64,000 nt of DNA from an uncultured cyanobacterium. GTDB lineage: Bacteria; Cyanobacteriota; Cyanobacteriia; PCC-6307; Cyanobiaceae. Position 1 is the stretch's first letter, and every line of letters begins with the position of its first letter. The position numbers and the translations under genes were made by a program. The notes beneath the pieces were generated by a model, which was not told the origin of the DNA, ran no database searches, and was given only the letters and a program-made list of their open reading frames with translations. This document shows positions 487 through 5,591 of the stretch, piece after piece. The DNA lies in NCBI GenBank assembly GCA_963765575.1, contig CAVXWZ010000002.1:416001-480000 (forward strand), read 5' to 3'.

Positions 487-1378
487 GCTCGCCGTATTGA
501 AAGGGGAACTGCTGGCCCAGCAGGCGTTCGGGCAGCACCTGCTGACCCTCCAGCACCACCTGCGCCCCATCGCCCAGCAGCAACTGCAGCACCGGCGCCG
601 GCACCGGCAGCAGGCTGGGGCGGCCGAGGGCACGGCCCAGGCCGGCGGCAAACTCGGCCATGGTCACCGGCTCGGGGGCCACGGCGTTGTAGGTGCCGCG
701 GTAGCTGTCGTCCTCGAGGGCGGTGGCAATCAGGCGGCAGAGGTCAAGGCGATGGATCCAGCTCATCCACTGCTGCCCGCTGCCCACCGGTCCTCCGAAC
801 CCCAGCCGGAACACCGGCAGCATCCGGCCCAGCGCTCCGCCATCGGGCCCCAGCACAATGCCGATGCGCAGGATCACCAGGCGCGTGGCGGCCGGGAGCG
901 CGGCCGCGGCCCCCTCCCAGCGCCTACAGATCTCAGCCAGGTAGTCCTGTCCCGGCGGGGAGTCCTCCCGGAAGCGGGCCGTGCTGCTGGTGCCGTAGAA
1001 CCCCACCGCCGAGCCGTTGATGAGCACCCGCGGTGGGTGATCCAGCCGCTGCAGGGCCTGCACCAACTGCTCGGTGGTGGCCACCCGGCTGGCCATCAGC
1101 AGGGCCCGGTGGGCTGCGGTCCAGCGCTTCTCGGCGATCGGTTCACCTGCCAGGTTGACCACGCCTTCGGCCGCGGCCAGGGCCTGCAGCAGGCCGTCCT
1201 GCTCCCAGCTGGCGGGCTGACTGGGATCGAGCTGAAGGCAGGCCAGACGAGAGCCCACCAGCTGGGGGAAGGGCCGGGCCTGCCTGCTCACCAGGGTGAG
1301 GCTGTGGCCGAGCGCCAAGAGGTAGGGCACCAGCTCGCGCCCCACGAATCCAGAACAGCCCAGCAGCAGCAGACGCAC
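443..1378 (-). CDS. TIGR01777-family NAD-dependent epimerase/oxidoreductase (ThyD-like)
   Basis: GTG start VRLLLLGCSGFVG (Rossmann), VVNLAGEPIAEKRWT, GSAVGFYG, GPVGSGQQWMSWIH. Confidence 0.9.
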   Translation of the reverse strand: MRLLLLGCSGFVGRELVPYLLALGHSLTLVSRQARPFPQLVGSRLACLQLDPSQPASWEQDGLLQALAAAEGVVNLAGEPIAEKRWTAAHRALLMASRVATTEQLVQALQRLDHPPRVLINGSAVGFYGTSSTARFREDSPPGQDYLAEICRRWEGAAAALPAATRLVILRIGIVLGPDGGALGRMLPVFRLGFGGPVGSGQQWMSWIHRLDLCRLIATALEDDSYRGTYNAVAPEPVTMAEFAAGLGRALGRPSLLPVPAPVLQLLLGDGAQVVLEGQQVLPERLLGQQFPFQYGELSAALAAATSPAGR

Positions 1379-1406
1379 GCCTTGATCTCCCTTTGCTGGG
1401 GGGAGG

Positions 1407-2637
1407 CTAGGCCCGCTCGGTGAGCCCCAGACGCTTGGCCATGGGCACCAGGGCGAAGCCCTGCAGCCCCAGCCCCAGCAGCACCACCCCCAGGGCCAGG
1501 GGCGGCATCCCACCGCCCCAGGGGATCGGTGAGGCGGCCGCCTGGATCGCCAGGGCGATCTGGCACGGCACCCCGCAGGCCGGAGCAGGCCACGAAGAGC
1601 TTCTCGGAGCGATCGAAACCCGACTGCGCCAGTAGCAGCTGCACCATCAGCCAGCGCACCAGCAGCATGGCCGCGAACAGCAACACCGCCCAGACCACCT
1701 CCCGCACCACATCCTCGGGCTGAACCACCAGCCCCATGCAGAGGAACAGCATCAGTTCAGCCATCTTGGCGAAACCGGCATGGGACGCCTCCAGCACAGG
1801 CCGGTCGCAATCGCCGGAATTGCCCAGCACCAGCCCGGCGATGTAGGCCGCCAGCAGGCCCGAGCCCCCCAGCAGCTGGGTGGCACCCACCAGCAGCAGC
1901 AGCACCGCCAGGCTGATCACCGGCAGCAGCGGCCCTGCGGCGGTGGAGCGGTCGGCCAGCAGCTGGCGGGCGAGGCTGCCACCCAGAAAGCCCAGCAGGG
2001 CGCCGAGCAGGAACTGACGGCTGACCGCCGCCACCAGGTCGGCCGGGCTGCCTGAGGCCTGGCCGGATGCCATCGCCATGGCCAGGCCGGCCAACACCAC
2101 CGCCACCGGATCATTGAAGGCCGATTCGGTTTCAATCAGATCGATCAGGCGGCGGGGCAGGTGGCCCGTGAGGGGCCGCAGCAGGGCGATGACCGCGGAG
2201 GCGTCGGTGCTGCAGACCATCGCCCCCACGAACAGCGCCAGGGGCAGGCCCAGGGGGCCGGTGGAGATGGGCAGGGGCACGCTCGCAAGTGCCAGCACCA
2301 ACGCCGTCAGCAGCAGGGCCGTGAGCAGCGAACCGAGGATCGACAGGCGCAGCGCCGGCCGCAGCACCGGGCGCAGCTCCCGCCAGTTGGTGGTGAGCCC
2401 ACCGAAGAAGAGCACCAGCACCAGGGCCACCTGGGCGATCTGATCGGCGTGGGTCAGCGACAGCAACGGCGGTGCCTGGCCCGGGATCTGTTCAAGGGGG
2501 TTGTCGGTGAGCAGCCCGAGCACGAGCACCAGAAGGATGCCGGGGATGCGGATGCGCGCGGCGATGTCATCCAGCAGCACCGCCACCAGCAGCAGCGCCC
2601 CGAACACCGTGAGAAACAGGGCAAGGGTGGAATTCAA
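1407..2637 (-). CDS. CPA1 cation:proton antiporter (NhaP2/CvrA-like membrane domain), with one +1 frameshift at ~1560
   Basis: STDASAV, ETESAFNDP and GLRGAVP motifs. After an extra base (CCA-G-ATC) the family continuation IALAIQAAAS...GLGLQGFALVPMAKRLGL runs in another frame to TAG at 1407-1409. Confidence 0.85.
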
Positions 2638-2954: not shown

Positions 2955-3662
2955 TCAGCGCTGCAGCCGCCGCCGGCTCCCGTGCAGCTGCCGGCGCCGC
3001 AACCGGGCCTTGCGCAGCAGCTCGCGGCCATCGCGCAGGTAGGAATCCACGTAGCCCATGGTGAAACGCTCCAGATCAAGCAGGGCGTCTTTCACCAAGC
3101 TCAGGCAGTGATAGAGCTCCAGGCTGAATTCCTGCAGACCGGCAGGCGTGGGCTGGGAACGGTAGAGGCTCTCCACCCGGGCCATGCGCCCCTGGCCCTG
3201 CTCGAGGAAGGTGCAGAACGCCTCCATGATCGCGTCGTCGTAGGGGTCGGCCGCCAGGGCGCGCAACTGGGCGGGGAAGGGGTTCACCACCTGGCCGAGC
3301 AGGCGATCGATCGGGACATAGACCTGTCGCAGCCAGGCCAATCGCTGCTCCTCGCCGGCAGTGGCTCTCGAGCCGGCGCGGGCAGCTGATGGGCCCGGAG
3401 CCCGTGAAGCCCCTGCCGGGCTGCTGACGCCGGCATGGGCGCTGCGCTGGCGGTCGTGGAGGCGGCGGCGCTCCGGGTCGCCGAGCTCTTCCCAGGCCGC
3501 GTTCAGCGCCAGGATCGTGGTGTCGTCGCCGCCGGCATCGGGGTGGTGCTGCTTCACCAGACGGCGGTAGGCCGCCTTGATTTCGGCGCCGCTGGCCTCG
3601 GGCGTCACCCCCAGCACCCGGTAGGGATCCAGCGTGGCGGCTTCGACCGTGAAGAGACCCAA
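2955..3662 (-). CDS. DnaJ (J-domain) protein
   Basis: DPYRVLGV...IKAAYRRLVKQHHPDAGGD (HPD motif); cyanobacterial C-terminal region LAADPYDD. Confidence 0.9.
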   Translation of the reverse strand: MGLFTVEAATLDPYRVLGVTPEASGAEIKAAYRRLVKQHHPDAGGDDTTILALNAAWEELGDPERRRLHDRQRSAHAGVSSPAGASRAPGPSAARAGSRATAGEEQRLAWLRQVYVPIDRLLGQVVNPFPAQLRALAADPYDDAIMEAFCTFLEQGQGRMARVESLYRSQPTPAGLQEFSLELYHCLSLVKDALLDLERFTMGYVDSYLRDGRELLRKARLRRRQLHGSRRRLQR

Positions 3663-3733
3663 GGCGTGGCGGCAGCGGCTGCAGGCGTTCTCAAGCTAAG
3701 GGACGCCCGCCAGCGAGTCACACCCAGGCCAAG

Positions 3734-3758
3734 AAAAAACCCCGGCCGAAGGCCGGGG
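3734..3758 (-). terminator. rho-independent terminator of the porin transcript
   Basis: Minus strand CCCCGGCC-UUC-GGCCGGGG followed by UUUUUU. Confidence 0.85.
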
Positions 3759-3904
3759 CGAGAGGAGGACGACGACGCTGTAGCGAGGACGTGAAGGAGT
3801 GCAGAACCAGGGAGTCGGAACGACTGCAGCCTGGGAAGGAAGTGCCGGACCTGGAGAGGTGTGAGGAACCAGGTCCGGACAAATGGGAAGAACTGATCGG
3901 AGGA
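3734..3904 (-). ncRNA. structured porin 3' UTR / candidate Yfr1-family sRNA
   Basis: Perfect 10-bp stem 3845-3854/3869-3878 presenting (G)UUCCUCACAC; second ACUCCUUCAC at 3791-3800; further hairpin; ends in a terminator. Confidence 0.55.
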
Positions 3905-5362
3905 TCAGAACTTGAAGGTGGTCTTGACCAGGCCGCCGTAGGTGTCGTCGACGACCGGTGTTCTGCAGGTAGAAGAAGGCAGGGGTCACGCTGATGTTGT
4001 CGGTGACCTGCCACTTGTACCAGAGCTCGTAGGCGAGGTTGTCGTCGCCGGCACCGCCGTCAACCCAGAGGCTGGCGGAGCAGCGTGGCGTTGGCACAGT
4101 TGCCACGATCCACCTGGCCGACGCTGCCAAGGGCCATGCCCAGGGCGTTGCCCTGCATGAACATGTCAGCCCACTGCAGGCCAACCATCCAGCTCCAGGC
4201 CGAATCGTTGTTGCGACGGTCGATGTCAGACCAGCCGAAGCCGGCGCTGATCGAGGGAGCCCAGCCGGCCTCCATCGGGCGACCAGTAGCCACTGATGCC
4301 AACGTTGTTGCTGGAGCGGGTGGGGAAGACAATGTTGCTGTAGTCAGCGTAGGTGTAGGCGATGGCGCCACCCCAGTTCTCACCGGAGTAACCACCCTGG
4401 GCGGTGATGGTGTAGTCCTCACCGGCACCGATGCGGGAGTTCTCGGCGGCATCCCGGTCGGAGACATAGTTCCAGGCTGAAGGCCCAGCCCTGGTCCTGC
4501 CACCAGATACCGGCACCGGCACCCTGGTTCAGGTTGTAGGCAGCCTGGGCACCCGCGTAGGTGAAGATGTCCAGGATGGTGTCAGCCGGGTAGGCGCTGG
4601 GCCAGATGGCCAGCATGTCGTCCTGGCGGACGTTGGCACCCACGGTGGCGGTGAAGTTTTCGCCGATGGGGAACTGGTAGAAGAGGCGGTTGAGCTCGAC
4701 TTGGACCGTTCGAAGTCTTCTTCGCCGGAAGGCGATCTCGAGCAGGGTGTTGCCGTTGCCGAACACCGAAGTCAGCGAAGTTGCCGGCCCGCAGGCGGGT
4801 GCGCAGCAGGTCCTTGCCGGTGAAGCTGGTGTCGAAGTTCAGCTGAACGTCGTAGTTGACGCGTGACGTCGCCGCCGAAGCCGGTGTTGCCGGCGCCGCC
4901 CAGCACCATGGTGGCCTGACCGTTGAGCTTGGTGGTGGTGGAGAACTGGTTGGCCTCCAGCTCACCCACCTTGGCCTCGAGGCCATCGACGCGGCCCTTG
5001 AGGATGGCGAGTTCCCTCTCGAACTCGGCCATCAGGCGCTTGAGCTCGTCGGTCACCTCGGTGACGCGGTCGAGACAGGCGTTCAGGAGGGCGGCGGCCT
5101 CGAAACGGGTCATGGCCCGCTGGCCCTTGAAGGTGCCGTCGGGATAGCCGGCGACGCAGCCGTAACGCTCGATCAGGTTGGAGAGCGCCTGGTAGGCCCA
5201 GTCCGTCGGGAAGACGTCGGGGAACTGGGAGATGCTGGTGACCTGTTCTTCGGAGGCGTACTGATTGACGCCATCCAGGTTGACCTCAGCGGCGGAGACG
5301 GCCACGGGGGCCAGCAGTCCGAGTGCCGCAGGGGCAACCAGCAGTTGCTGGAAAAGTTTCAT
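3905..5362 (-). CDS. som: Som-type outer-membrane porin with N-terminal SLH domain; reading frame broken by multiple 1-nt insertions
   Basis: MKLFQQLLVAPAALGLL signal peptide, SLH (DVFPTDWAYQAL..LIERYGCVAGYPDG), QFSTTTKL, DTSFTGKDLLRTRLRAGNF, YKWQVTDNISVTPAFFY, C-terminal KTTFKF*; spread over six ORF fragments. Confidence 0.9.
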
Positions 5363-5368
5363 GGGGGT

Positions 5369-5379
5369 GTTCCTCACAC
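5369..5379 (-). promoter_or_regulatory. porin RBS / Yfr1-type sRNA target site GUGUGAGGAAC
   Basis: Lies 7-17 nt upstream of the ATG (5362) and contains GAGGA; complementary to the Yfr1 core UCCUCACAC. Confidence 0.7.
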
Positions 5380-5591
5380 AAATGGCGCAATGCGCCGAGC
5401 ACAGTGTGTGACCAGGGATCACCCCCCTCCAGCCCGGGTGTGCCAGAGCGTGCAATGGCCTCGGACAACGGGCCCCGCCAGCCACGCTGCCAAAACGATG
5501 CCCCCGGTATCCCTGGAAGGGGACGCCGGGGGCTCTCGCCGGGTCCGCATCGGTCGCGGAACCGTTTGATCAGGGTTGAGGCGCCGTAATC

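Follow-up and report, generated by a model that had tools for sequence, protein, structure and literature searches.

The porin locus and its 3′ end

The window analysed here, a stretch of 64,000 nucleotides from an uncultured member of the Cyanobiaceae, carries on its minus strand a som-type SLH-OprB porin gene (3905..5362; ATG at 5360-5362, stop at 3905-3907), assigned by its Pfam SLH and OprB domains and by tblastn against an intact orthologue. A DnaJ-domain gene (2955..3662, minus strand) is its syntenic downstream neighbour and lies outside the element described below. With the intact orthologue as reference, the porin copy contains six frame changes, which went unmentioned in the earlier note on this DNA. 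An antiporter-like ORF (1288-2637, minus strand; cation/proton antiporter-like, a label read from the sequence) changes frame near its C-terminus, probably through an assembly indel, and gaps in the porin region distinguish contigs of related populations from the window. Because a second window gene also changes frame and related contigs differ by gaps, the porin frameshifts are likely to be assembly indels; they are probably assembly errors, and the window copy may instead be a pseudogene.

The end of the porin mRNA is predicted to be structured (z = -6.4 for the fold of 3725-3910, with 0 of 200 shuffles folding as well) and comprises three minus-strand elements. A small predicted hairpin, CUGAUC/GAUCAG, covers the stop codon (3893..3908). 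A hairpin with a 10-bp stem and a 14-nt loop, which we call the seed hairpin, begins 26 nt past the porin stop (3845..3878); its arms are CCGGACCTGG (3869-3878) and CCAGGTCCGG (3845-3854), its loop is UUCCUCACACCUCU, and the perfect stem described in the earlier note was recovered in both the MFE and the centroid folds. After it comes a single minus-strand terminator, intrinsic and with a U-tail (3733..3759, stem 3739-3759), supported by the fold and a terminator call and similar in orthologues, which is the predicted 3′ end of the porin mRNA and of any 3′ fragment. No promoter consensus was found near the porin 3′ end. Of the sequencing runs compared with the region, 20 shared at most a third of its words, all of them assembled contigs that cannot show ends; in two RNA runs nothing aligned to 3600-3883 at 85% likeness, a result that speaks neither for nor against a transcript.

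The loop exposes the sequence UUCCUCACAC (3859..3868, minus strand) at an opening cost of about 0 kcal/mol, and its core CCUCACAC (3859-3866) is common to the small RNAs Yfr1 and Yfr10 and the porin loop. Extended by one base, 3859-3869 reads GTTCCTCACAC on the minus strand. The 5′ G of this 11-mer, G3869, is the closing base of the stem; opening that position costs 3.5 kcal/mol for a gain of 2.6, which leaves a free seed of 10 nt and not 11.

The leader site

The minus strand at 5369-5379 reads GTGTGAGGAAC, the exact reverse complement of 3859-3869 and the longest such match between 5340-5480 and 3734-3904. This confirms the 11-nt complement claimed in the earlier note, of which 10 nt are free. 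The leader site, GUGUGAGGAAC, is of the Yfr1 target type and lies over the GAGGA Shine-Dalgarno sequence at -17 to -7 (5369..5379, minus strand); within it, GUGUGAGGAA is complementary to the exposed seed. Among 20,000 random 170-nt stretches of the genome, 14 hold a complement of at least 11 nt to the -23..-1 region and 490 one of at least 8 nt. The site is nearly identical to the 5′ end of Yfr2, and the leader of MED4 PMM1121 carries UGUGUGAGGC (supplement of PMC6778093).

Just upstream, the leader contains a conserved hairpin, GGCGC-AUU-GCGCC (5384..5396, minus strand), each left-arm base of which is kept in 44 of the 47 leaders holding TGCGCC. We infer that it probably marks the mRNA 5′ end, which suggests a leader of about 35 nt, and in a leader of that length opening the site costs 3.3 kcal/mol, compared with 9 kcal/mol in a longer one. 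Column conservation points to a possible weak -10 box, CACACT, 6 nt before the hairpin (5403..5408, minus strand; A in 34 of 47 leaders and, four columns further along, T in 28); no sigma-70 consensus was matched at the porin leader. If transcription started further upstream, a G-run and UCACACA within 5363-5428 (minus strand) could fold back over the ribosome-binding site, a fold that is not conserved among the leaders compared.

Relation to Yfr1 and Yfr10

The earlier note had proposed a Yfr1-family sRNA or a long-range loop in cis, and the first did not hold: a search of 3600-4000 with Yfr1 (RF01116) gave no match even when E-values as high as 10 were allowed, and the Yfr1 of this genome lies on another contig only (C11:602300-602358, 61 bits). 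At gathering score Rfam returned no family besides a tRNA in the window, and the weak matches of an E-value scan fell far below the gathering scores. Yfr1 (PMC2190773, PMC2796815, PMC6974561) has the same seed core and the same som-leader target site, and represses two som leaders about 3-fold (PMC2796815). Its motif is an invariant ACUCCUCACAC, unpaired between two stem-loops and usually, if not universally, placed between guaB and trxA, whereas the porin tail has GUUCCUCACAC, without the AC start, in a hairpin loop, and is flanked by the porin and the DnaJ-domain gene.

The element more closely resembles the Yfr10-like sRNAs of Prochlorococcus MED4 (Yfr10, Yfr12 and Yfr18; PMC2518516, PMC6778093), which hold a Yfr1-type motif in a loop atop a stem, followed by a terminator, and for which pairing with som leaders and Yfr2 is predicted, as it is for the porin element. 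The motif here, UCCUCACAC, matches 9 of 11 Yfr1-motif bases, and Yfr12 is also a variant. In a table that we take, from the order of the files, as the Yfr10 pull-down, som peaks are enriched 5.9-8.6-fold (PMC6778093). The Yfr10-like sRNAs of MED4 are separate transcripts adjoining Yfr2 genes, however, while the porin element lies within the 3′ UTR of the very gene it would target, and neither of two published Yfr10-like probes matched the 159 porin loci. The published WH8102 probe falls at L160:1490-1540 (G200), about 210 nt downstream of a sigma-factor gene and not at a porin, where it adjoins CUCCUCACAC as well as a terminator. The porin element is built like Yfr10 and not like Yfr1; membership of an sRNA class would require a demonstrated RNA.

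Within this genome the arrangement is confined to som genes and Yfr1. By our own simple rule we predicted 118 terminators, and only three were preceded, at a distance of up to about 130 nt, by CCTCACA or CTCACAC: that of Yfr1 and those of two som genes, the window porin and a porin at C1:187837-189310. Both of these porins have GUGUGAGGA leaders. A third porin (L001), with a UGUGAGGA leader, has no seed, and a fourth (L002) has neither such a leader nor the seed. Searching the genome with the covariance model described below gave no further clear copy, the next match having E=0.09. The reading frame of the second som copy (G000:C1:187837-189310) is also split, so both seed-bearing som porins are frameshifted in the assembly, and two other C1 porins are intact.

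Conservation across genomes

We took porin loci from the best-scoring rows of a search of 151 genomes, with 496 weaker matches left outside, a set that leans to close homologues. Both flanks were present for 125 of 155 porin frames, which were counted; the broken copy of the window is outside this count. TGTGAGG occurs at most 25 nt from the start in 83 of the 125. Site and seed occur together in 40 porins, the site only in 43, the seed only in none and neither in 42, so that the exact seed follows 40 of the 83 site-bearing porins, is missing from 43 of those 83 and follows 0 of the 42 that lack the site. A one-wobble, G-U-compatible variant of the seed is present in 8 of the 43 site-only porins and in 1 of the 42 site-less ones. 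The site-less porins need about 5 changes on a FastTree tree and represent few lineages, for which reason the Fisher p of 1.5e-9 overstates the association.

In a wider survey, porin-type stops (TGA or TAA) were followed by CCUCAC at a distance of 12-70 nt in 101 of 201 genomes of the family and in 16 of 36 genera, and a reversed-pattern control gave 0 matches in the same 201 genomes. A stricter pattern retrieved 112 stretches from a collection of 185,579 genomes; 99 of them have cyanobacterial record titles, 4 are labelled 'uncultured bacterium' and 9 carry other names. Records with non-cyanobacterial titles that match the porin-plus-seed pattern (L176, L177, L180, L244, L255, L268, L269 and L277) are probably mislabelled or contaminated assemblies. 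Outside the family, where the survey took in TAG stops, the pattern matched 6 of 227 genomes, against 5 reversed-control matches over all 251. Four of the six contain real porins, from two other families and with 33-38% identity; the match in G362 is not a porin. Three of these porins (one genus, 33% identity) have a GUGUGAGGA leader and the seed before the terminator, and the fourth, L331, has the seed and lacks the exact 5′ site.

Several individual loci were of note. In small low-GC genomes the seed follows 2 of the 15 porin-like frames listed (L151 and L157); at L157 (G067:C5, near 293671) the loop of the terminator hairpin contains a perfect ACUCCUCACAC, and a stretch similar to this terminator loop lies at G511:C4:162316. 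The porin 3′ ends L020, L028, L031 and L047 keep the hairpin, have lost the seed from its loop and show a sequence like CACUCC(C)CACAC ahead of the terminator, as though the seed had shifted there. A loose pattern matched 26 of 81 genomes of one genus (g37), but the rows listed are mostly copies of a single stretch that does not look like the end of a porin gene. This conserved AT-rich stretch, which holds GUGUGAGGAA and recurs in about 20 genomes (L339-L349), is possibly another Yfr1 target leader or a Yfr1-motif RNA.

Could the motif be a relic or a chance match in the C/U-rich tail of a decaying gene? The six frame changes and the patchy distribution (16 of 36 genera) would fit such an absence of function. 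Yet an invariant loop sits on fully replaced stems across genera, the reversed pattern yielded nothing in the family, the same seed is present in intact porin orthologues and the second frame change in the window points to assembly indels; we regard this explanation as extremely improbable.

Structure across homologues

We assembled 139 distinct porin 3′ ends with CCUCACA, most of them selected by the motif. The seed lies in a hairpin loop in 94 of the 139, compared with 6 of 104 CCTCACA sites genome-wide, and in 44 of 52 loci not selected by the motif; in many of the remaining 45 ends it is single-stranded before the terminator, as in Yfr1. Its mean unpaired probability is 0.90, against 0.52 at genome-wide CCTCACA sites. 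In these mostly motif-selected ends a C follows CCUCACA in 134 of 139, and the bases before it vary. Loops are mostly 12-16 nt long and stems differ completely between genera. Pairing of the stop codon is predicted in 100 of 139 porin 3′ ends with the seed and in 54 of 112 without it; the hairpin formed there could shield a released fragment at its 5′ end.

A covariance model built from 37 hairpins, with the stem specified by hand, recovered 44 of 58 other chosen loci, some of them near-copies of training loci. In the 44 homologues aligned to this model, compensatory changes were found on both sides at 9 of 9 stem pairs. Paired cells make up 85.6% of the alignment, a value reached by 0 of 500 shuffles and set against 29-55% in slid controls; as the alignment was fitted to the structure, it leans towards it. 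Motif and hairpin are conserved in orthologous porin 3′ UTRs. These 3′ UTRs carry a conserved, structured and exposed Yfr1-type seed that is specific to som porins.

A free stem sequence under a fixed loop is also what might be expected if an RNA-binding protein read CCUCACAC in Yfr1, Yfr10 and som 3′ ends and set mRNA stability or location, the complementarity being incidental. Voss 2007 (PMC2190773) raised this alternative for the Yfr1 motif, and 23 of 139 tails contain two seed-like copies. On the other side, the motif has been shown in published work to act by base pairing, and a protein would leave unexplained the confinement to porins with a complementary leader. Departures from the motif mostly keep G-U pairing too, though these are also the commonest mutations. 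Protein binding is, to our mind, very unlikely as the main function of the loop.

Pairing between the two ends of one mRNA

The longest perfect complement between the 5′ and 3′ regions is 11 nt in the window (10 of them free) and 7-12 nt in 40 homologues. The earlier note had seen, in the GU that replaces the AC of Yfr1, a hint of co-variation with the gene's own ribosome-binding site. The G of this GU closes the stem, and the two positions concerned pair with the leader in 10 and 15 of 40 genes, respectively. Over the 40 genes, the mean longest own complement is 9.30 nt compared with 9.26 nt in shuffled pairs (p=0.38), and duplex energies do not separate the two either (p=0.24). The base of the loop that faces the invariant A of the leader is U in only 26 of 40 genes. 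Since own pairs are no better than shuffled ones, the co-variation claim fails and a private lock in cis gains no support, while the absence of own-pair covariation fits a seed shared in trans.

Such a lock would resemble that of Staphylococcus aureus icaR (PMC3868564), which has an anti-Shine-Dalgarno motif in its own 3′ UTR: once transcription is complete the loop would kiss its own leader, limiting translation to nascent or ribosome-covered mRNA. Besides this precedent, the restriction of the seed, within the family set, to site-bearing porins and its presence on both genes in 15 of 35 multi-porin loci (many of them motif-selected) speak for it. In 14 of the 35, however, only one gene has the seed, and icaR pairs over about 40 nt, forming an RNase III substrate, compared with a match of 8-11 nt on a loop here (10 nt in the window). 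The full-length fold gives the helix between seed and leader a probability of 0, although the model cannot represent kissing loops. Taken with the missing own-pair covariation, these points make a closed loop in cis quite unlikely.

Yfr2 as a competing partner

Yfr2 titrates the Yfr1-type seed (PMC6778093) and, in vitro, out-competes an mRNA target of Yfr1 and Yfr10. The genome has one copy (Rfam Cyano-1; C11:90259-90329), which very probably begins with GUGUGAGGAG, as judged from a -10-like box, and in 29 of the 30 genomes examined the Yfr2 5′ region has either GUGUGAGGAG or GUGUGAGGGG. The loop pairs with this 5′ end and with the leader at the same energy, -15.2 kcal/mol. An apparent preference of the loop for Yfr2 (-23.5 vs -16.4) was dismissed because it drew on bases lying ahead of the probable first nucleotide of Yfr2; the difference disappears once pairing begins at the inferred start. 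The earlier note, which had the gene's own and paralogous som leaders as partners, had missed Yfr2, which pairs just as well.

The variant GUGUGAGGGG occurs in 16 of 201 genomes from 9 genera (L310, L312, L313, L314 and 12 more), and in the four Yfr2-variant genomes checked Yfr1 keeps ACUCCUCACAC, giving a G-U pair.

The loop could accordingly serve as a decoy or binding site that captures the Yfr2 5′ end. In one version, Yfr1 would be freed to repress som, an indirect negative feedback in which a sponge is itself sponged; in the other, Yfr2 would alter the stability of the som 3′ end. The equal energies and the nearly uniform Yfr2 5′ sequence agree with this. So does a hand count in six genomes with a GAGGGG-type Yfr2, where a C precedes CCUCAC in 8 of 12 listed rows, compared with about 30 of 138 elsewhere, with Yfr1 unchanged in the four genomes checked. 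But these six genomes are two genera, and the C is also common in GAGGAG genera. The Yfr2 start is itself inferred, its 5′ end is dearer to open than the short leader (6.3 vs 3.3 kcal/mol), and a decoy would have no need to be restricted to genes with the 5′ site. We consider this possibility rather unlikely. SroC and SkatA (reviewed in PMC9438474) offer a parallel, each being an mRNA 3′ region that binds an sRNA of its parent circuit; they sponge a repressor, a positive feedback, whereas the porin tail would sponge the anti-repressor Yfr2, a negative one.

A trans-acting seed at the porin 3′ end

From the sequence comparisons, the reading that we tentatively prefer, at a little below an even chance, is that the 3′-end seed represses som leaders in trans, in the manner of CarZ, with negative feedback on the porin itself and its paralogues. 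The seed of Yfr1 and Yfr10 is present a second time at the som mRNA 3′ end, where a hairpin loop keeps it open. About 170 nt, from hairpin to terminator, would persist as a stable decay or processing product, or act while still on the mRNA. By forming 8-10 bp with the GUGUGAGGA ribosome-binding site, on its own som mRNA and on paralogous ones, the seed would block initiation. Its supply would rise with som transcription, adding negative feedback on top of the constitutive Yfr1, and the seed, like Yfr1 and Yfr10, would be titrated by Yfr2.

Specificity, co-occurrence with the 5′ site, accessibility, stem covariation and breadth support repression in trans. It is weakened by the 43 of 83 site-bearing porins without the exact seed, by L331 with a seed and no exact site, by the equal pairing of Yfr2, by the frameshifted window copy and by the loop U that faces the invariant leader A in only 26 of 40 genes. 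Ten base pairs within a 14-nt loop are also sterically tight. Repression in trans, a Yfr2 decoy and a loop in cis all lower porin output and are not mutually exclusive.

The closest likeness is to CarZ and OppZ of Vibrio cholerae (PMC7398697), 3′ UTR elements complementary to their own translation start that exert negative feedback; CarZ represses the first 5′ UTR of its own operon. The porin element likewise lies in the 3′ UTR, shares its terminator with the porin gene and is complementary to the porin translation start region. For CarZ and OppZ, release by RNase E and dependence on Hfq have been demonstrated, whereas release of the porin element is putative. They also have seeds of their own, unlike the porin element, whose seed is common to a phylum-wide sRNA and its antagonist. 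We found no description of the seed in porin 3′ UTRs in the literature searched, mostly papers outside subscription, with Yfr104-like RNAs outside the comparison, and the element is apparently undescribed so far.

The full-length, uncut porin mRNA might also be its own repressor, the 3′ loop locking porin ribosome-binding sites in cis or between molecules, and Yfr2, whose 5′ end copies the porin leader, unlocking them. We think this unlikely; were it true, Yfr1, Yfr10 and the tail of the target itself, three kinds of RNA, would all carry one seed and be switched by a single antagonist, and the same layout on the 33%-identical porins of another family would be ancient or repeatedly evolved.

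On the evidence of these comparisons the porin tail is a real, conserved RNA element that would, by the mechanism proposed, extend known 3′-end autoregulation. Yfr1 is close to constitutive, and PMC6974561 names the tuning of its regulon as an open question. If repression by the porin tail is true, a seed supply scaling with transcription of a main target would provide built-in dose control for outer-membrane porins, and the balance of titration between Yfr1 and Yfr2 would be altered in roughly half the picocyanobacterial genomes that were sampled. The 3′ UTR autoregulation described in Vibrio and Staphylococcus would then also operate in cyanobacteria, through a seed borrowed from an sRNA found across the phylum.
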